The translations under genes and the position numbers were made by a program. 64,000 bases of DNA from Saccostrea echinata (lineage: Eukaryota). Location: assembly GCF_033153115.1 (NCBI RefSeq), contig NW_026889765.1, positions 16,492,001 through 16,556,000 on the forward strand, given 5' to 3'. The notes below the pieces were generated by a model. That model was given only the letters and a program-made list of their open reading frames with translations, had not been told where the DNA came from and did no database searches. Within the stretch, counting starts at the first letter, position 1. Every line of letters begins with the position of its first letter. Positions 38,712 through 64,000 of this stretch are shown here, piece by piece.

Positions 38712-39758
38712 ATGCAGTCTAGTATACTTTTAATGAACACTTCCTTGGATTTCTCTGGAAACCATTCGAATTCAAATGGCTCTTCAAAGTCTCCATCGTT
38801 GCCAGATAGTCTGTTATATACTGCAGGAGGAATCATGCTGTTGGAGAACTTTCTATCAATTATCATACTAAACAAGTGCACACGATTATGTTTTCAAATC
38901 CGAATTTTTGCAATCAACCTTGCTCTATCCGATTTCCTGACTGGAGTTATCCTTGCTTTGTCAAACTTAGTAATCTTTGAAGGACTAAATTGTGATGTCA
39001 AGCAGTACCTTACTTCTTGGTTTATAAATGTATCACTACTCATCATATCAATGTTAAATCTAGATCGATATTTTTCTTTTGTGTTTGCAATGCGATATTA
39101 CTCTTTCATAACTAAGAAAATCATAATTCTAATATGTGTAGTAATTTGGATAGCAGGATCTTTATTAACATACGGAATGTTTTTTAGCTACAATAATGAA
39201 TGGGAATTGAATTATAAATTTCTCAGATTTGTTCCAAGAAATGCTGTAAACTTAGTCTTTAGGAAAATACTTTTTATTATTGTAGTTTTAAATGTTGTAA
39301 TTTGTGTTTATCTAATATATAGTATGTACATTCGCTTATGTAAGGTGTCCACAAAGAATTCTTCAAAAAAGGGGAGAAAAAGAAGAGCTGCATTTGAAGC
39401 GAGTCAATTAAGAACGATTCGAAAAATAATGTCGATTGTTTGTGTGTTCTTAGTAAGTTATCTACCTGGCATAGTAATTTTGACTTTTCCATTAATTGAC
39501 TTGAGACAAGAACCTGGAAGAAGCATCTATGACATCGTGAGCTGCCTTATTATTTTGAACAGTGCCTGCAATCCAATATTTTATGTTTGGAGCTTCTCTG
39601 AAACTAGGTACCATTTGAAACGTCTTTGGTGTTTCTGGAATAAAGAAATGAAGGAAAAGTTCAAGCTCGAATTTCGCTTCAAAAACGCCTCGTATATTAT
39701 TGATTTCAAACATTCTGAAGAAACAGGAAGCCAGCTGCAAGAGAATAGTAATCCTTGA
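38712..39758 (+). CDS. Class A (rhodopsin-like) GPCR, single coding exon, orphan
   Basis: Intact ORF of 348 aa from ATG 38712 (alternative ATG 38733). Seven hydrophobic segments, N-terminal N-glycosylation sequons, EN in TM1, NLALSD in TM2, LDRY, W in TM4, SYLP in TM6 and NSACNPIFY in TM7. AATAAA at ~39941. Confidence 0.93.
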   Translation: MQSSILLMNTSLDFSGNHSNSNGSSKSPSLPDSLLYTAGGIMLLENFLSIIILNKCTRLCFQIRIFAINLALSDFLTGVILALSNLVIFEGLNCDVKQYLTSWFINVSLLIISMLNLDRYFSFVFAMRYYSFITKKIIILICVVIWIAGSLLTYGMFFSYNNEWELNYKFLRFVPRNAVNLVFRKILFIIVVLNVVICVYLIYSMYIRLCKVSTKNSSKKGRKRRAAFEASQLRTIRKIMSIVCVFLVSYLPGIVILTFPLIDLRQEPGRSIYDIVSCLIILNSACNPIFYVWSFSETRYHLKRLWCFWNKEMKEKFKLEFRFKNASYIIDFKHSEETGSQLQENSNP

Positions 39759-50721: not shown

Positions 50722-52915
50722 CTTAAATCCAAATATGAAACAGATGTGTCAGACTCTGTGGTATCTTTTATCTCAAGTTCACCAGGATATATCGTATCGA
50801 CATAAGAATGAAAATAGCCATTGTTAATTGACAATACGTCGTCGATATATCTAAATGTGGAGTTGAAGGCCACGGCAAGTGTTTTCTTCTTTTCACGTAC
50901 AAGATTTTGGACAAATTCTGCTTCATATGAATACAAAAAAAGGTCTGCTAATAACGGTGCGCAATTGGTACCCATAGAAATTCCAATAGATTGTTGGAAG
51001 ACCTGGTCTCCAAAAACTACATAGATATTGTCAATCAGAAACTCAAGCATCTTTTTAATGTCAACTTCAGAGTACTTGTGTGTACAATCAGAATGTTTTT
51101 TAACAAAATAATTTTGCAAATGACCAATGACAAGGTAAGTATATTTACGAGTTCCATTTTTATTGAAAAAGCAGCTGTCAATGATAACAAAAAGCCTGGA
51201 CTTTAATTTATCGTGGGGAATGGTTGTGTATAAAGTTGAAAAGTCGTAAGTTTTTAAGCTGTTGATTTTGGTAAAATCTTGTGATTTCAAATTTTCCAAA
51301 AGTTCCTTGGAATTTTTAAGTATCCACATCTGATTTACACCACTTCTCGAATATATTGTTGCACAGTACTCTTGAAGTTTCTCCTTCACCACTGTTAATA
51401 TCTTAGTGAGGAGTAAAGATAGAGGCTTGGTTGAACATTTACTGGAACCCGCTATGTATCTTTGTTTGTAAGGATTTTTATGAAGTTTCGGAATCCAATA
51501 TAAATATGGTAATTCGAATTCATTTTGGTTGTTTGGAATATTAAAAATATTCAAAACTGACATATGATTTTGAAGAATTTCTTCCTTAGAAAGGGGACTA
51601 TGAGTATAAGTTGGATTACCACTTGTAGAATTAAATCCAAGTTCCTCTAAAATACATTTAATATAATGAGCCTTACAAACAAAGACAATGTTGTTACCTG
51701 CTTTGTCAGCAGGGACCAGTACGTACTGATCATGTAATCTATCTAATTCTTTTTTCACTTCTGGATTATTGAAAACAGAAGGATAGATGGTTTTCATATT
51801 GCCTCTCAATCTTTTAATGCGCGATTTAAACATACATCTGATACATTTAATCCATTCTGACAAAGTGTCAAGGTCTTCTTTTTCATGTCTGGCCCATCGC
51901 CTGGCGTAGTCCTCTACAGAATCCATAAAATTTATGAAATTCTTACGCCAGTTGAAGGATCTGGGTTCCCTAAATTTAGGACCTTTTGAAATTAGTGATC
52001 TAAGATCCTCATTATTAACTATATTTACGTCACCAGTAATAACGTGTCCAGCAGGACTATAGATATAGGGCGAAGAAGAACATGAACACGATGGAGGATT
52101 ATGTTTCAGATATTCGATATCCAGGCCCTGTAAAGTTTTCTTGTAATTAAAAAGTTTGGAAGCAATAGTCGATGTATATTTGTAGGAAATACAAGGTGTA
52201 GTCTTTAACTTGAAGTATGGTGGAATACAAGACTGGACCCTTTTGTGATTAAGGATATTACTTATATTAACCGCGTCAATTCCTTTGTTGGCATATTGAA
52301 GTTTAAGGAAAAAACGGATTGTTTTAGCTGCATTTTCTTCAGTAAAACGCGGGGGTTTAAAAAGCCTATGATTGGCAATATCCATAACTACAGATCCGAG
52401 CCTATATTCTGGTGTCGGAGAATCATAAAATGGACTTTCCTCGACCTTTTCAAGAAGACTATTTAAAAGTTTCAAAGGGACAGAGTAAAGTTTGGTGCAA
52501 ATATGATGTAACCCTAACTGTTGATTTACGTAAGGTAGTAATGAATCAAAAGAGACATCGTGTATTAAAGGTTTATTGTAAGACCGATGCCCATGACTAC
52601 GCTTACGTCTCTGTGTATGGTTAAAAAGTCCCATCACATTTACATTGTTACACTGTGGACTGGAAAGATTTCCAACACTATCGACATTGTCATTACATCC
52701 ATAGGGAAAGGCTGTCCCTAGCTTTCTTATCCAAAATTCTTCTCGTTGTCTACGGAAAGGTGTACTCAGTGATGGACTGTTTGTGTGGTGGTAAATCTTT
52801 TCCAGAATTCTAACTTTCATTGACAAAATTGAATGATCAGGTAAATTAAAATGTTTGTATAAAAGTTGCTGACCCCCATTATTTATCTGAAATCTATGAC
52901 CTGATGTTCTTTTAC
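50722..52915 (-). mobile_element. Penelope-like retroelement of Naiad type (GIY-YIG endonuclease N-terminal to RT), truncated at both ends
   Basis: Uninterrupted frame of >700 aa. The C-half of GIY-YIG (R..GH...LYKHFNLPDH; RRQREEFWIRKLGTAFPYGCN) precedes PLE RT motifs ADKAGN, LYWIPKLHK, YDFSTLYTTIPH, GISMGTNCAPLLADLFL, FRYIDD and YLDL. Confidence 0.9.
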
Positions 52916-53629: not shown

Positions 53630-56190
53630 GAGTATACTGGGTAGTGAAAGGGTCCCTCCCAGATCCTTCCCTTGTAAAAAGATGAAGGTCTAAATATGGG
53701 ATACAATATGTTAGCCAGCCTTTCGAACTATATACACTTATAACAGAATTATAAGCATATTTCCCTATTTTGACCTAGGTAGCTAAATGGGTTATCGGTC
53801 TTGTAAACTCTATTCCTTTTGACACTCAAAGGGTCCCTCCCAGACCCCTGCCCTGTAAAAAGAAGAAGGTCTAAATATAGGATACAGGATGTAAGCCAGC
53901 CCTTCGAACTATATACAGTTAAACTTCGTTATCTCGAAGTTGACGGGACCGTTGATGAACTTCGAGATATCCGGGGGTTCGACATATCGAGGGTTATAAT
54001 TCTAATGAACTTCAAATAAACTTAGTGCAGTGAACATGTACTTAATAGTAGAAACATGTCAAATTCCTTCTTGTTTGAAATTCTGTATACGTTTTCTTTA
54101 ATATACATGTAATTAGCATTAAAGAGATTTTCACATCCTCTGTATAATTCACAAAATAAAAACCTTGTATAATATGCACAGACGTATAATCCTTCTACCG
54201 ACCCGATATGTCAACCGCTAGCATCGTTTCTCATGTATACATAACCGGATATCGTCTATGCATTGTAAATTTAAAACCGGTTGCTGTCAGAATAACGCAA
54301 ACGAAATATACATTTTTTTTTATCGGAAAAACATGTTCATACATGTATAATCATTTAGATAAAATATTTTACCATTATAAAATCAAATGCAAAAGAAGAA
54401 ACACGCACTTTTGTTTAACTACAGAAGAACACTGAATAACCGGGCACTATAGCAGAAGTTTTACTGCGACACACGCTCACATGATGGTGTGTACTGACGG
54501 TTGTAAATTCTGCGCGCACATATACACATGTAGGAAAAATAAATTCTAATTGCATTAAATTACAGAATTTTGTTTCACTTTGATGTTTATAATTTTCGCT
54601 TTCGTATGCATAAACTATGCAAGCGCGCATATTACACATAGCATTAAATAGCGATTATCAAGATTTATAAACGTACCCCAGCTATGAAACAATTAACGTG
54701 TCATCCACGCGTATGCATAAGACTAATACACACAACCTTTGGCTTGCATAATTAAAATCAAGGTAAGCCATACATACACCTCGTATAATTATCGCGCTAT
54801 AATTTGTTGATCAAAGGAACACGGGTAACCCGTGCGTGACAGACAGGTGGGTGTTATAAATAGAGCGGTCAGTTTACCTAACGGACTTGATTATCCTGAC
54901 TTCGAGATAACGCATGTGATTCTAATAAATGAGTACATAGTTTTACTTCGAGATAACCGGGGTATTCGACATTACCGTGTTCGACATAGAGGGGTTTATT
55001 CTAATCATTTATAAAGCAAGTTTCGTCGGGACCGCGGCCTTACTTCGACATATCCGGGGTATTCGAGATATCCGTGTTCGAGATCTCGAAGTTTAGCTGT
55101 ACTCTAATAACAGTATTATACACGTTTTCCCAATTTTGATCGGGCTAGCTAAAAGAGTTATCGGTCTTTTAAACTGGATTCCTTTCGAAAATCAAAGGGA
55201 CCCTCCTAGATCCCTCAACCGTAAAAAAATAAAGGTCTTAATATGGGATCCAGGATGAAAGCCAGCCCTTCGAACTAAATACTCTTATAACAGTATTATA
55301 CGCGTTTTCCCCCATTTTGACCGAGCTAGCTAAATAGGTTATCGGTCTTGTAAACTCAATTTCTTTTGACAGTGAATGGGGTTCTCCCAGACCCCTCCCT
55401 TGCAAAAAGATGAATGTTGTTATTTGGGATCCAGGATGCAAGCCATTCCTTCGAACTATATACTCTTATAATAGTAATATACATGTACGTTTTTTCCCCA
55501 ATTTTGACCGAGCTGGCTAAATAGGTTTTCGGTCTTGTAAACTCAGTTCCATTTGACAGTCAAAGGGCTATCCAAGACCCGTCATCTGTAAAAAGATAGA
55601 GGACTAAATATGGGATCAGGATGTTAGCCAGCCCTTCGAACTATATACTCTTATAACAGTATTATACTCATATTTCCCAATTTTGACAGGGCTAGCTAAA
55701 TGAGTTATCGGTCTTTTAAACTGAATTCCTTTCGACAGTAAATGAGTCATCCCCAGACCCCTCCCCTGTAAAAAGATGAAGGTTTTAATATGGGATCCAG
55801 CTCAGGTTGTTAGCGAGCCCTTCGATCTATATACTCTTATAGCAGTATTATACGCGTTTTCCCCCATTTTGACCGAGCTAGCTAAATAGGTTATCGGTCT
55901 TGTAAACTCAATTCCTTTTGACAGTGAATGGGGCTCTCCTAGTCCCCTCCCTTGCAATAAAATGAATGTCTAAATATGGGAACCAGGATGTGAGCCAGCC
56001 CTTCGAACTATATAGTCTTATAACAGTAAAATACGCGCTTTTCCCCATTTTGACAAGGCTAGCTAAATGGGTTATCGGTCTTGTAAACTCCATTCCTTTT
56101 GACAGTGAAAGGGTCCCTCCCAGACCCATGCCCTGTAAAAAAAAAAATGAATGTCTAAATATGGGATCCAGGATGTGAGCCAGCCCCTGG
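53630..56190 (+). repeat. Tandem array of a ~181-bp satellite monomer (~8 units) with a unique flank to ~56450
   Basis: Anchor CCTTCGAACT at ~53720, 53901, 55267, 55448, 55633, 55819 and 56000. The period is ~181-186 once the 1.18-kb insertion is removed. Confidence 0.92.
53916..55099. mobile_element. pogo/Tigger-type (Tc1/mariner) MITE inserted in the satellite array
   Basis: TA|CAGTTAAACTTCGTTATCTCGAA ... TTCGAGATCTCGAAGTTTAGCTG|TA, with subterminal TTCGASATA repeats. Removal restores the monomer GAACTATATACTCT. Confidence 0.9.
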
Positions 56191-57222: not shown

Positions 57223-59084
57223 GACATGAAGAGACACCTCATAACTTTATTTATTAGTTGTTCAAATGCAGGGATGCAAGTGCGTAGCATAATTTTTGAA
57301 ACTGTGTTTGTTTGCGGAGGGGGGATCCAAAAAAAAATGGCAACTAACCGGGAAAACTTTGAAAAGCAAAAAAAAGTATTTTTCCAAACTTGAAAATTGT
57401 ATTTCGTGCAGGGGGAGGGGGTGTGTGTTTGTTTTAACTTCTTTCACAACCCATCCTTATTCATAGAGTACCACATTACACTGAATTGACTAACTGCAAT
57501 AAAATATGGGGGAGGGTGAACTAGTCTTTCATTGAATGTTTTTTCAACGGTAAAAGGTTATGTTTGGGAATAAATGGGGGCAGGCCCCAGTGCATCCCCC
57601 ATACTACCTGCCTTCTTTATTGACTTGAAATCTGTTGATTTTTTTGTCTATTGTAGAGTATTGTAAATATTGTTTAAATGTTGTTATAACGGGTTTCCAT
57701 ACTGTTGGGGTTGTTTTGCAACTGGTATATAAAGGGACTGGTTTTGTCGGAGTGGTCAGATCTAGTTTGGTGTCCGGTAAAGTGACCAGCCGGAGGTGTG
57801 CCACGTTTGCTGTATCCCCTGCATGATTATACAAGTGGCGAATATATTTCGGTGAGATATAGCACCGAATTTAATGGGTAGCCATATAACTTGTAAGTTG
57901 GACTATTGCAGTGTGTATATGCAGTTCTAGCCGGTAAGAGTGTTTTAATAATGTATATCGGTGGTTTATTATAAATTTCCGGTTTTCTGTTGTAATATAT
58001 GGTAGGTTTTTGTAAACGTAAATTCATTTCAGTGCGTACATGTAAGAGGCTTGGAGACAATTTATAATTAAGTGGACGTGCTGAGGGTCAGTTAACGATG
58101 TTTGTGAGTTATTGACGAGATTTGGATGGAGGGCCACAGATGTCATATCCAAATGTAGATGTTGTCAATGGTATGGTAGGTTAACCGGGATGGTAGGCTA
58201 AAGACCCGGGGCTGCGGTTACGAAACTACCACTTGAGGACTACGGAACTTGGTGGGACGTAGACGTAGGTGCGGCGAATGCGCAGTTGTGTGATGTCCTG
58301 GACACGTGTGGTTGACCTCAGTTGGTGAAAATGTAAATTTGAGTAACTTTCGGTGGCTTATAAAAGAGAACATTTATATTTGAATACTATCATTAATAGA
58401 ATTTATTTGAGCCTTTTCGGAATATTATTTTTGAACGGTCAAAAAAAAAATTGGCGAATTATTCATTTGATATAATATCTGATACTAACGAAATCAGAAC
58501 TGTAGGAGTTAATATTGAAACTATGTAAAGTATCAGAATTTGTAATACTGAGTTAACAGTTCATATTTATTTCATTTTCCGTGTGTGAGCCTGTATGTGA
58601 GAGTGAGTGAGCGACATAGAATTTATTTGTTCTCTATTTTTTTTTTTATTTCGTGTTAATAAATTTGTTTATTTATTCTGATTGACATTGTTTTCCTTCT
58701 CAACTCTACAAAATCCTGAAAGAACTTATTACAACATTCAAAGTAAAAGGTAGTCTGTCCACGTTCAGAATCAGCGCTCTAAGGATAAGGAGAACTAGCA
58801 GCATCTCTTCTGCATTACTTTAAAAGGCCAACAAAGGTTTACTTTTGCATTGCAATACTCATGAACACATATGTCAGTCTTATGACTTTGGCCAGGGAAT
58901 TCGCCTGACATTCTGACATCCTGACTCCTGTATTCATCGATAGTACAACAAAAGAATACAGACACAAATCGCCTTTCATAATGGCTTTGAGAAACGTGAA
59001 ATTCTACGTTTTTTTTTAACAAATGATTTTAAATGTGAGCATGGAAATAATAGATTGATAATACTGGTTGTTTTTAATGTAATG

Positions 59085-59495
59085 CGGTACCAATTTTGAT
59101 GCACCAGAAGCGCATTTCAACAAATAATGTCTCTTCAGTGATGCTCATGGTGAAACGTTGGAGATCCGAAATATTTGAATAAAAAATTTTAAAAGCCGAG
59201 AAAGGGATGCCTGTGGTCAAATACGTCGAAGGATCAGAGCTGTGCATGTGTGAAATAATCCTTAATTTTGAAATAAATCTCTGAATTTTACCACAGCAAT
59301 AAAATTTGTATTTTCAAGCTAGTACCGAAGTATTTAGATACTGGGCTGTAGAGACCCTCAGGGGCTAACAGTCAACCATCAGAGGCCTCGACCCAGGGGT
59401 CATTATCTTAATCATATACGGTTTTAATTTTGATGCACCAGATGGACATTTCGACAAATTAGTGATGCTCATGCCAAAACGTTGGAAATCCAAAC
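59085..59495 (-). mobile_element. Retrozyme-like / Penelope pLTR unit: ~334-bp monomer with terminal direct repeats carrying hammerhead motifs
   Basis: The block AATTTTGATGCACCAGA..CATTTC.ACAAAT..AGTGATGCTCATG...AAACGTTGGA.ATCC occurs at ~59092-59168 and again at ~59426-59490. The second copy has lost the CUGAAGA core. Confidence 0.7.
59101..59144 (-). ncRNA. Minimal type I hammerhead ribozyme motif, slightly mutated
   Basis: The - strand reads GCAUCA-CUGAAGA-GAC(auuauuu)GUU-GAAA-UGCGCU-UC-UGGUGC. Helix I is GCAUCA/UGGUGC, the core is CUGAnGA...GAAA...UH, and helix III is near-palindromic. Confidence 0.75.
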
Positions 59496-60695
59496 TATTA
59501 AAAAAAGGTTTTGAGGAGCTATGTGTTATTTTGCTATATACAAGGGTTGTCAGGTAAAATCGTTGAAAAGTACTCTTGAGTGAACATTGCCTTCTAACAT
59601 TTTCCGTACACTTTAGTTCATTTTTTTTATCAATATACATAGCAAAAGAGTTATATGCTCAAAAAAAAAATATGGGATTTTATGTCATGTGTGGTATCAC
59701 CTAACGGAGCATGGACGATAACGTCAAAATGTCTGAAGCAACGTCACATTTCGTCTCTGCTTAAAAAAGTTGGTTAAGTATCACTTAAATTCCGGGAATT
59801 TTACTGACGCATACACACGGGTTCCCCTTTCTTCCCCCATAAACAGTCGAGGGACCAATCTTGCACACATATGGGACCTTATGAAAACTTGTATTAGTAA
59901 GTTCTTGAAAATCCTCTCACTTTCACTGAACTAAATAGGCAATCTTTTTTTTAATAGTCTGCAATGAAAGCGTCTTTCTTTATTGCAAATACATGTAGCT
60001 GACTGTTTGTATCTGATCTACCGGTGGACTCGATCAAAAAGCTTCCGCTTTAAAGCAAAATGCCTATTACACTTGTATTCTAGTGTATTGGTAATATTTT
60101 AATATTGTGTTATCTTCTGTTATCATTTAATGTCTTTTAACGCGTCATTGCTTAATCAACAATTACTGCTCTCTGGTGTGCCATAATGTTATCAAACGTC
60201 ACTATTTTCGTGCATTTCGTTTATGTGGTAGTTGTACTTAGTTTTGTTTATTTTTAATTAATGCTTTGTATTTTATTTCAGGAATTTCCTTCATCCACTC
60301 ATCCATACATATACACAAGCGCTACACATTACTAATATATTGTTACTTATTCATTTTCTTAAATACCTAAACATCCGAATTCAAATATTGGTTTAACCCA
60401 AAGACTATAGGTAAAGGTAGATTTAAAGATTAGTCTGATCATAGATAAGGGTGTTGTCTATTATCTTACATTCCGTTGGTCAGTTGGCATTGTTTGGTCA
60501 GAGATGTCTACCCAGGCAAGAAACCTTTGTTTTACTATTCTATTCAAAGATTTTTTTGACTACGAGGATAAAGATATAGGGTACCTGTTATAATTTGATT
60601 TATTTATATACTTTGGAGTATATCAATATCCATAAATAGTAAGTAAACCCTTTCTTAAACTAATCAAATGATCGTAAACTAAAATAAAGGATAAT

Positions 60696-61609: not shown

Positions 61610-62350
61610 TTTTAGCTCACCTGAGCTGAAAGCTCAAGTTAGCCTTTCTGATCACATTTTGTCTGTAGTCCGTCTGTCCGTCTAGCTGTTCGTCCGTCCG
61701 TCTGTAAACTTTTCACATTTTCGACTTCTTCTCCAGAATCACCAGGTCAATTTCAACCAAACTTGCCACAAAGCATCCGTGGGCTAAGGGAATTCAGGTT
61801 TGTTCAAATGAAGGACCAAGCCCTTATTCAAGGGGAAATAATTCAGAAATAGTGAAATTTTTTGGCATATTTTAACAATCTTTTCAAGAACCACTGCCCC
61901 CAAAAAGTTGAAACTTAAAGAAAACCTTCATTACATGGTGTAGATTCAAGTTCGTTCAAATCACGACCCTGGGGGTAGGGTGGGGCCAAAATAGGGGATC
62001 AAAGTTTTACATAGGAATATATAGGAAGAAAATCTTTAAAAATGTTCCTCTCAAGAACAGAAAGGCCATGATTAGTCATACTGATATGGAAGCATCCCCA
62101 GGTATTGTAGATTCACGTTTGTTCAAATGATGACCCCGGGGGCAGGGTGGGGTCAGAATGGGGGATCAAAGTTTTACATAGAAATATATAGGAAGAAATC
62201 TTTAAAAATATTCTTCTCAAGAACAGCAAGGCCATGATTAGTCATATTGATATGGAAGTATCCTCAGGTAGTGTAGACTCAAGTTTATTCAAATCATGAC
62301 CCCCGGGGGTAGGGTCGGGTCACAATGAGGGATCAAAATTTTTACATAAA
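61610..62350 (+). mobile_element. HINE (Cg_HINE-like), 3'-truncated, with ~166-bp Cg170-like satellite monomers
   Basis: Starts TTTTAGCTCACCTGAGCTGAAAGCTCAAG, followed by a GTCY microsatellite (61667-61702). The monomer anchor GAYTCA.GTT..TTCAAAT recurs at ~61943, 62110 and 62276. Confidence 0.88.
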
Positions 62351-64000
62351 AATATAATATTAAAAACACAATATACCATCACGTCATAATTTTATTTTCA
62401 AAGTTTGGATAACATCATCAAGAATCAGGTAGTCTTTTTAATTCAAATGTGTGGTAAAAGAGATCACTGTACTGCTTTTGTTAAACTGTACTATGCTAAC
62501 GGAAAAATTGTGTGGTCAAATTCTTTTCTTTTTTGCAAGATATTCCTTTCATAAATCCTCAATACATGTAACTTTTTAAAACCACAGTTTTGGGACACTT
62601 ATGTTGAAATACCCTGTATATTAACATATCGTGAAAGTATGTGTCCTCTTTTATGATATAGAGGTCTACCATGGTACATAATTTATGTAAATGGTGTCTA
62701 TATTTTTGTTCGTATAGCTATAAATCTTCAAAATTATTGAAACATATGACCTTAGGTAACATCTTTTATTAAATATTTTAACTGGAGACTGATACACAAA
62801 ATGAATTCAACAATATCCATTAAAATGTTGAATCTTTTTTGATTAAGTATCATATAAACAGAGACAATTTCTGAAGTGAGGGCAGGCTGTTGACAGACGG
62901 GTTGATGGAGATCTCATCGGCCTTGTTTGGTGTCAGGTTCGGAGGTTTTGTGGTCGCTGCGGTGGCCTTTGATGTCAGGTTCGAAGGTTTTGCGGTCGCT
63001 GCGGTAGCCTTGTCTTCAGGTGCAAAATATAATTAGGTCAGATGCTAAACCCAAGATTAATGTTCAAAAAACTAATTTTAGAATTGGAATTAACAACTTG
63101 AAAATTGAAATTATCAAATTTAAAGTTTGAAAAGCCAACTTTAAAGTTGGTATCAACAACTTCAAAAAAAAAAAAAATTACCAGGCACTTATGCGCCATT
63201 TCCCAAAATATGCTTTTCTAGAAAAGTTTTGTTTGCATTAATTTAGTCTATCTGCAATATTTTTATGACAAAATTCTGTTGTTTCTGCACAATATGAATC
63301 CATGTCTATCAGTGAACAGGTTATAAGTAAGGAATGAATACTGTAAATTTTATAAATTTTACTTGTAATTTGCCTTTTTATATGTCTTATTTAATGCGTT
63401 TTCATTCTTATGACAAAATCATTTTGAACAACTGTTGTATAATGCATTTCTATATGGTATTACGTTTGAATGTAATTTGCAAACAAGGTGTTACATCAAC
63501 GTGTCCATCGATGACAATTCATTAGTTATCAGATAAATTTAACTTTCCTTGAAAAATGAAATACAGATATGACGATATTTAATTTTAAAAAAATGATTAT
63601 CGAAGCTTAGATTCCGTGTGATACCAAAACTGCGATTGAATTCCCACTTAATGATTTTAATACTAAACAGATAAGCTTCAATCTATACATTATTTATCTT
63701 ACCTACTTCTTAATTTTATGTCATTGATTTTGTATGTAATTAAGGATGTATTGTGTTGAATTAACTGAATTAACTTTTCAATTTTGGCACTTTGATTCGA
63801 TATTTTTATTGTTTGAAACAAAATGATATGGAAAAATAGGAATTAGGGAATTTATTTTTAAATATTATAAGGCGTTACTAATATGAGAGGGAACCAAACA
63901 TCTTGGACTGTTTTATAGACAATGAATGAGAAATGTCTTTCTTGAAAATTTTATGATTTGGAATTATACTTTTCTTCATATATTTTAGAAAGCAAATAAA

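Follow-up and report, generated by a model that had tools for sequence, protein, structure and literature searches.

The window, a stretch of 64,000 nucleotides from the 923-Mb genome of Saccostrea echinata, contains a decayed copy of a non-coding hammerhead retrozyme whose family unit is 347 nt long, and which is probably copied by the endonuclease-RT of Naiad, an element whose start hairpin and end it has. By all features checked in its sequence, the family belongs with the non-LTR retrozymes, which are an established kind of element. In the following sections, we describe the window copy and its family, the ends and the hairpin that link the family to Naiad, and the other explanations that bear on these data.

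The retrozyme copy in the window

The features of the copy are collected in Table 1. The preliminary description had placed the element at 59085-59495, and comparison with the family corrects these bounds to about 59077-59520, on the minus strand. The copy is decayed, and its identity to the 347-nt family majority, which was built from 19 monomers, is 86%. AT is found by eye at both junctions, and nested copies of the family are alike in this respect; it is likely a 2-bp target duplication.

Table 1. Positions in the window of the retrozyme copy, its parts and the nearby Naiad fragment
Feature	Positions	Strand	Basis and remarks
Whole insertion	59077..59520	-	Sequence compared with family majority; a 5'-truncated upstream unit (about 80 nt) is followed by one unit of 334 nt and a tail of 30 nt
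Downstream type I hammerhead	59101..59144	-	Both CUGAAGA and GAAA are preserved; helix II contains a G.U and helix III a U.U mismatch
Upstream hammerhead copy	59435..59468	-	10-nt deletion that takes out the 5' strand of helix II together with most of CUGAAGA; predicted dead
Monomer, cleavage site to cleavage site	59107..59440	-	334 nt; 86% identity to the 347-nt family majority
Hairpin in common with the Naiad 5' start	59341..59396	-	+9 to +64 after the fixed-end position
Tail, cleavage site to fixed 3' end ...TACAT	59077..59106	-	36 nt in the family, shorter in the window copy
Unlinked Naiad fragment, truncated at both ends	50727..52914	-	Belongs to the inferred partner family; outside the retrozyme insertion

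The downstream core had been called complete; its coordinates and motifs are as described, but the two pairing defects listed in Table 1 qualify that word. Read 5' to 3' on the minus strand from 59144 to 59101, it begins with helix I (GCAUCA), CUGAAGA (59138-59132), helix II (GAC/GUU) and GAAA (59118-59115), and continues with UGCGCU, UC and then UGGUGC, with the predicted cleavage between 59107 and 59106. The upstream copy was likewise found at the positions reported for it, at a spacing of 334 and with its core deleted, 10 nt of the core being missing. With a deletion in one core and a mismatch in helix III of the other, the window copy should release no monomer. The reported unit of about 334 nt holds as the spacing in this copy, whereas the family unit is 347 nt and the lower value is due to deletions in the window copy. 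The hairpin of the window copy has four substitutions in the upper stem, and the tail would mark the start of reverse transcription.

No ORF of at least 120 aa was found over the copy. An Rfam search of the window gave nothing at the gathering score and no hammerhead at E<=10, so that the hammerhead scan which the preliminary description had proposed detects neither window copy; over the genome, RF00163 gave 2 sub-threshold matches, with 73 candidates scored.

Several other features were identified in the window. A 475-aa ORF with a DDE_Tnp_4 domain (1319-2746, minus strand) is presumably a Harbinger-like transposase, and a 365-aa open frame (38661-39758, plus strand) matches rhodopsin-family 7TM receptors (PF00001). 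Broken LINE-like frames, in which endonuclease and RT motifs can be recognised by eye, lie at 11475-14420 and 8233-8925 (both on the minus strand). Short arrays of 167-bp and 181-bp repeats occur at 15521-16318, 18481-18885, 53640-53910, 55100-56186 and 61938-62356; we assume that the 167-bp tandem repeats look like oyster satellites, and that the 167-bp and 181-bp arrays presumably resemble the satellite-like arrays of Helentron elements in oysters.

The retrozyme family

From the two window copies of the hammerhead, an intact ribozyme had been rebuilt. Exactly this 44-nt family ribozyme occurs 188 times in the genome (105+83), and the reversed-pattern control occurs 0 times; the ribozyme is therefore not a chance product. 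A search with the window stretch itself gave 1873 first-look candidates in the genome, of which 40 were scored to give 52 matches. A looser ribozyme pattern gave 1926 genome matches versus 301 in the control, and among the first 100 of these matches listed, 47 distinct family places were recognised by eye over 50.7 Mb, which by extrapolation corresponds to roughly 850 recognisable family cores in the genome.

The family majority is 347 nt long, non-coding and 40% GC, which agrees with the 150-450 nt and the GC below 50% of non-LTR retrozymes, and each of the 19 monomers (332-350 nt) from which it was built is 91-98% identical to it. Within the unit, conservation is highest in the ribozyme region (97-98% versus 84-97% elsewhere), although this figure is inflated because the monomers were picked by their cores. 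In the hammerhead fold, helix I can be extended to 10 bp and helix II to 4 bp, and helix III consists of 2 bp and a GCGC loop. The preliminary description had spoken of a minimal hammerhead with a palindromic helix III; the helix is not of the single-pair kind, but the palindrome AUGCGCAU could still allow a dimer. On the folding model, RNA of the family is predicted to cleave itself.

The make-up of the insertions was determined in 150 independent cases, a sample picked for good matches from an estimated 850 or more: 77 fall short of a full unit, 68 comprise roughly a single unit, and 5 have two or three full units. Some copies are head-to-tail repeats with two intact ribozymes, and at least two intact cores are present in 14 of the 150 insertions, the window copy not being among such copies. 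The family analysis thus bears out the view of the window copy as a decayed, non-coding monomer-plus copy of a hammerhead retroelement.

Insertion ends and target sites

The ends were analysed in 83 insertions anchored on an internal motif, that is, 88 loci minus 5 duplicates. The 3' end is fixed: 57 of the 83 insertions stop within unit positions 32-41, with the sequence ...TTTACAT, and this end lies 36 nt beyond the cleavage site. This end is not peculiar to the assembly used, since contigs from runs of three other organisms break at the same position (loose ends 1207/1208 of L145). The 5' ends, in contrast, are scattered, with a stop rate of about 1.4-1.8% per nt over the entire stretch from +12 to -75. 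A pile-up of 5' ends at the cleavage site was considered and rejected: a single insertion of the 83 ends within 3 nt of it, and for this reason the ends give no sign that cleavage matters.

In 6 copies nested in Naiad, where the empty site is visible, target duplications of 2-6 bp were read by eye (AT, AT, ATT, ATA, ATTT and TTTCAT). Duplications of at least 6 bp were counted in 8 of 59 cases (one locus counted twice) versus 25 of 584 swapped controls, which is a weak signal.

These ends bear on whether the family might be a satellite-like repeat that is spread by DNA recombination and whose ribozyme is a chance or dead motif. The short tandem arrays among the insertions (the 5 of 150 with two or three full units) would fit such a repeat. 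However, the copies lie on many contigs and have a fixed 3' end, 5' truncation and short duplications, and one copy is edited (see below), all of which point to reverse transcription; we regard the recombination explanation as largely refuted and give it next to no weight.

The hairpin in common with Naiad

Similarity between the retrozyme and Naiad is confined to one place, 29 nt near the Naiad 5' start. The common motif lies exactly 20 nt after the ...CAT end in both elements, and the 56-nt hairpin that comes right after the fixed end in the retrozyme also opens Naiad, in equal register. When the end and the motif were combined into one pattern, 169 places matched, and the 100 matches listed belong to the retrozyme and Naiad families only. 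A looser form of the pattern gave 242 matches, and the 100 listed included two extra variants, both alignable to Naiad.

Folded separately, the 70 nt after the end take an identical hairpin form in the retrozyme and in Naiad, and RNAalifold also gives a nearly identical hairpin structure, while the two sequences are identical at 41 of these 70 positions, with 0 indels. All 21 hairpin pairs are kept, 7 of them via two-sided changes and 2 via one-sided changes (0.0004 under a random-substitution null). Over 17 distinct rows, 95.5% of the cells pair, versus 34-55% when the partners are slid. The covariation score exceeds that of 500 of 500 shuffles, but the count of pairs changed on both sides is not better than in shuffles (197/500). 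This covariation amounts to about seven events in what is in essence a single comparison of two lineages, and both sequences had been seen when the structure was chosen. The retrozyme hairpin taken alone has z = -1.5, and the divergent Naiad copy L239 folds differently. A model of the hairpin gave no match in 400 kb of control DNA, and neither the hairpin nor its sequence was found in two hammerhead-bearing PLE families (30 and 14 loci, 5' starts left out).

Two side observations concern the same region. The divergent Naiad 5' starts L239:1259-1328 and L240:1227-1296 carry variants of the hairpin, one of them without a preceding Naiad pLTR match. Unit positions 46-56, inside the covarying stem, read GGGTCGAGGCC, which we take to resemble the Pol III B box consensus.

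Because the hairpin sits 3' of the start in both families, like the RNA that the Poseidon RT needs, we infer by analogy that it may be the binding signal of the Naiad protein, borrowed by the retrozyme. Judged from these sequence comparisons, the Naiad endonuclease-RT is likely the best-supported partner enzyme of the retrozyme.

The Naiad family in the genome

One Naiad copy (L065) has a 1046-aa ORF in which GIY-YIG lies N-terminal to RT. Pfam places GIY-YIG at 176-264 and RVT_1 at 787-894, both under curated cut-offs, and the DKA, CxC, GxKF, KR-rich and CX2-5CxxC motifs of Naiads can be recognised by eye, as defined by Craig et al. 2021 (bioRxiv 10.1101/2021.04.23.441226; this and the other papers are cited from excerpts). 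One Naiad copy was checked over its first 400 and its last 600 nt and has no sense-strand CTGAnGA there; no paired hammerhead core was found across 20 loci, and no permuted hammerhead in the Naiad family, in agreement with the excerpted text of Craig et al., according to which hammerheads are absent from Naiads.

Mobilisation by a Naiad RT had been suggested on the basis of the element 6 kb away. The suggestion gains support from the common end and hairpin, but the nearby element is no evidence in itself. This ORF fragment comes from an abundant young family and is about 98% identical to its relatives; its presence says little, because about 3% of the sequence in 400 kb of control DNA is Naiad and because the fragment is younger than the retrozyme copy. 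Over the sample, Naiad adjoins 13 of 150 retrozyme insertions versus a background of 3.2% (p 0.001; control interval up to 4.8%), and it lies on both sides of 6 of 150 versus 2.4% (p 0.15). In the two head-to-head joins, Naiad and retrozyme differ in age (85 vs 96% and 67 vs 85%). Naiad neighbours are not counted here as proof of joint mobilisation.

Hammerhead-bearing PLE families

The preliminary description had considered that the unit would be only a solo pLTR if it were always attached to PLE ORFs; apart from one isolated join (L046, below), the unit is not joined to PLE sequence in the loci examined. In the loci examined, full units are preceded by the end of another unit and never by an ORF, and the flanks of the copies contain no shared abutting sequence, upstream or downstream, and no collinear ORF. 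It had also been asked whether full-length Naiads end in the repeat; no similarity to the unit is seen in the Naiad 3' UTR. In view of these observations, we consider it very improbable that the unit is a solo pLTR belonging to an autonomous PLE with a hammerhead, although Xenopus retrozymes are homologous to pLTRs (bioRxiv 10.64898/2026.07.22.740005, excerpt) and the 150 insertions looked at come from an estimated 850 or more.

Another explanation retains the hairpin as a relic of a Naiad 5' end, or as a transcription or stability signal, and assigns the copying to the RT of a Neptune-type PLE or a LINE. PLEs that bear hammerheads are indeed present, with CUGAAGA cores and GCGC loops like those of the retrozyme, and at L046 a retrozyme copy lies directly after the 3' end of such a PLE, which has a C-terminal endonuclease. 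However, L046 is 1 of 15 loci of its PLE family, the unit being found after 0 of the 14 other copies. The two hammerhead-bearing families, each of which has a C-terminal endonuclease, insert into (TA)n-type microsatellites, in which they mostly end, and have different ends, whereas the fixed end of the retrozyme is at Naiad's own end position relative to the hairpin. Copying by such another RT is therefore a quite unlikely reading, and Naiad is retained as the probable partner below.

The PLE loci collected in this comparison include a young family (L249, L250 and L263-L292) that is 97-98% identical, has a C-terminal GIY-YIG and is inserted in (TA)n; it has two alternative ends, and the small hammerhead that it carries has a GCGC loop. 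The second hammerhead-bearing family, with ends in (TA)n-type microsatellites, is represented by L046:1150-1500 and L294-L307. Two hammerhead-like motifs, diverged but in type I order, lie in L247 and L248 near position 4000 on the minus strand; their helix III seems by eye to enclose an insert of about 60 nt.

An apparently hyper-edited insertion and the nature of the template

The two ribozymes that one insertion (L021, L024) carries in tandem show 11 and 10 A>G changes, respectively, with 0 T>C changes. The changes are clustered at unit positions 322 to 10 and turn GAAA into GGGG, whereas in the remaining 184 of 186 distinct segments the A>G count never exceeds 3. At L021:1900-2622 and L024 (G000:C54 ~831k; C30 ~25.8M), two retrozyme arms lie tail to tail with one arm edited; since the flanks are 99% identical, the two loci represent one event that is present at two places. 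The cluster looks like A-to-I hyper-editing, in a single event, that was fixed by reverse transcription. This editing, which is confined to both ribozymes, points to an RNA intermediate. The edits common to both tandem units may come from one circle copied twice; a later duplication also explains them.

Copies longer than 36 nt have been copied through the cleavage junction, and the template was therefore a circle or an uncut multimer, either of which fits. With Naiad still as the partner, an uncut multimeric transcript could serve as the template, as it does for Poseidon, in which case the hammerhead would act in RNA processing or turnover and circles would have no part in transposition. The 5' ends, which ignore the cleavage site, are what such a template would give, and the Naiad family makes pLTRs without a hammerhead core at its ends. 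On the other hand, no part of the unit is better conserved than the ribozyme (a contrast inflated by core-based picking), the edits that the two tandem units have in common are as expected from a circle copied twice, a later duplication fitting as well, and circles have been demonstrated for mussel retrozymes (PMC7229834, excerpt). We therefore judge the uncut template unlikely, and describe the copying by Naiad with a circular intermediate.

Proposed mechanism

In the first step of the proposed mechanism, copies longer than one unit would be transcribed. Cleavage at UC by two hammerheads would follow, and the 347-nt circle would be closed by a ligase of the host, for example RtcB, both events being predicted from mussel and axolotl retrozymes. 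The Naiad protein would bind the hairpin, 9-64 nt 3' of the start point, nick an AT-containing target and copy from the internal unit position 36; here the fixed end is observed, and the enzyme is the putative part. Copying passes the cleavage junction, goes round the unit and stops variably, as is seen in the insertions, and the integration would leave the 2-6 bp duplications of the 6 nested copies. Since the start point is only 36 nt from the 5' end of the cut monomer, circularisation would make the monomer copyable.

A wider form of this proposal, which we put forward tentatively and hold to be possible rather than probable, is that bivalve-type retrozymes are SINE-like chimeras that combine the RT-binding hairpin of Naiad with a hammerhead that Naiad lacks. 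The circle would set the hairpin just 3' of the start, the Naiad RT would copy round it, and ADAR editing of the ribozyme could lock circles shut. If true, this would name an enzyme and a cis-signal for the mobilisation of retrozymes, and it would provide the first RNA recognition element for Naiads.

Comparison with known systems

For the RT that moves animal retrozymes, papers name PLEs as candidates because both have hammerheads. The best-supported partner here comes from the Naiad clade, reported to be without hammerheads, and what connects the two is a compact structure of 56 nt that has seven compensatory pairs and lies beside a fixed start, which makes the hairpin a candidate binding element for a telomerase-related RT. 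In the literature excerpts, no paper was found that ties retrozymes to Naiad. The element type itself is known; a retrozyme with a fixed ...CAT end and the Naiad start hairpin appears, from its sequence, to be new. The window locus itself is only a dead copy of it.

For mussel retrozymes, cleavage, RtcB ligation and circles have been shown, while PLEs are only candidates (Cervera & de la Pena 2020, PMC7229834, excerpt). Like the 350-390 nt retrozymes of Mytilus galloprovincialis in that paper, the present family is non-coding, a few hundred nt long, low in GC and present in many copies, with a mollusc-like host; it has a type I hammerhead with a short helix III and head-to-tail repeats, and the make-up of its helices I, II and III resembles that of the invertebrate hammerheads described there. 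Compared by description with the Mytilus retrozymes, it differs in being mostly dispersed as <1 to ~1.3 units, in having its 3' end fixed 36 nt beyond the cleavage site and in carrying the hairpin of an autonomous family that can be named. How circles might avoid opening themselves is a puzzle raised in the same paper, on which the hyper-edited copy offers a hint.

With Naiad, as excerpted from Craig et al. 2021, the retrozyme shares the ...CAT end, the 5' hairpin in register, 5' truncation and partial tandems; it differs in having no ORF and a hammerhead, and nothing else is in common. Xenopus retrozymes (Li, Clavereau, Pollet 2026, bioRxiv 10.64898/2026.07.22.740005, excerpt) are similar in their non-autonomous dependence on PLEs, and only 1 of 9 of their dimers was cleaved. 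Their homology, however, is to the pLTR of hammerhead-bearing PLEs, whereas here it is to the 5' start of a Naiad without an end hammerhead and covers only the 56-nt hairpin and the end position.

For Poseidon, reverse transcription has been shown to begin within the RNA and to require RNA that lies 3' of the start point; the enzyme cuts at ATT, and hammerhead cleavage is dispensable in vitro (Frangieh et al. 2024, PMC11167929, excerpt). Poseidon is autonomous, belongs to another PLE clade and has two start sites that give an optional tail, whereas the retrozyme has one dominant end. Like Anolis Poseidon, nevertheless, the retrozyme would start internally, downstream of the hammerhead, as its insertion ends suggest.
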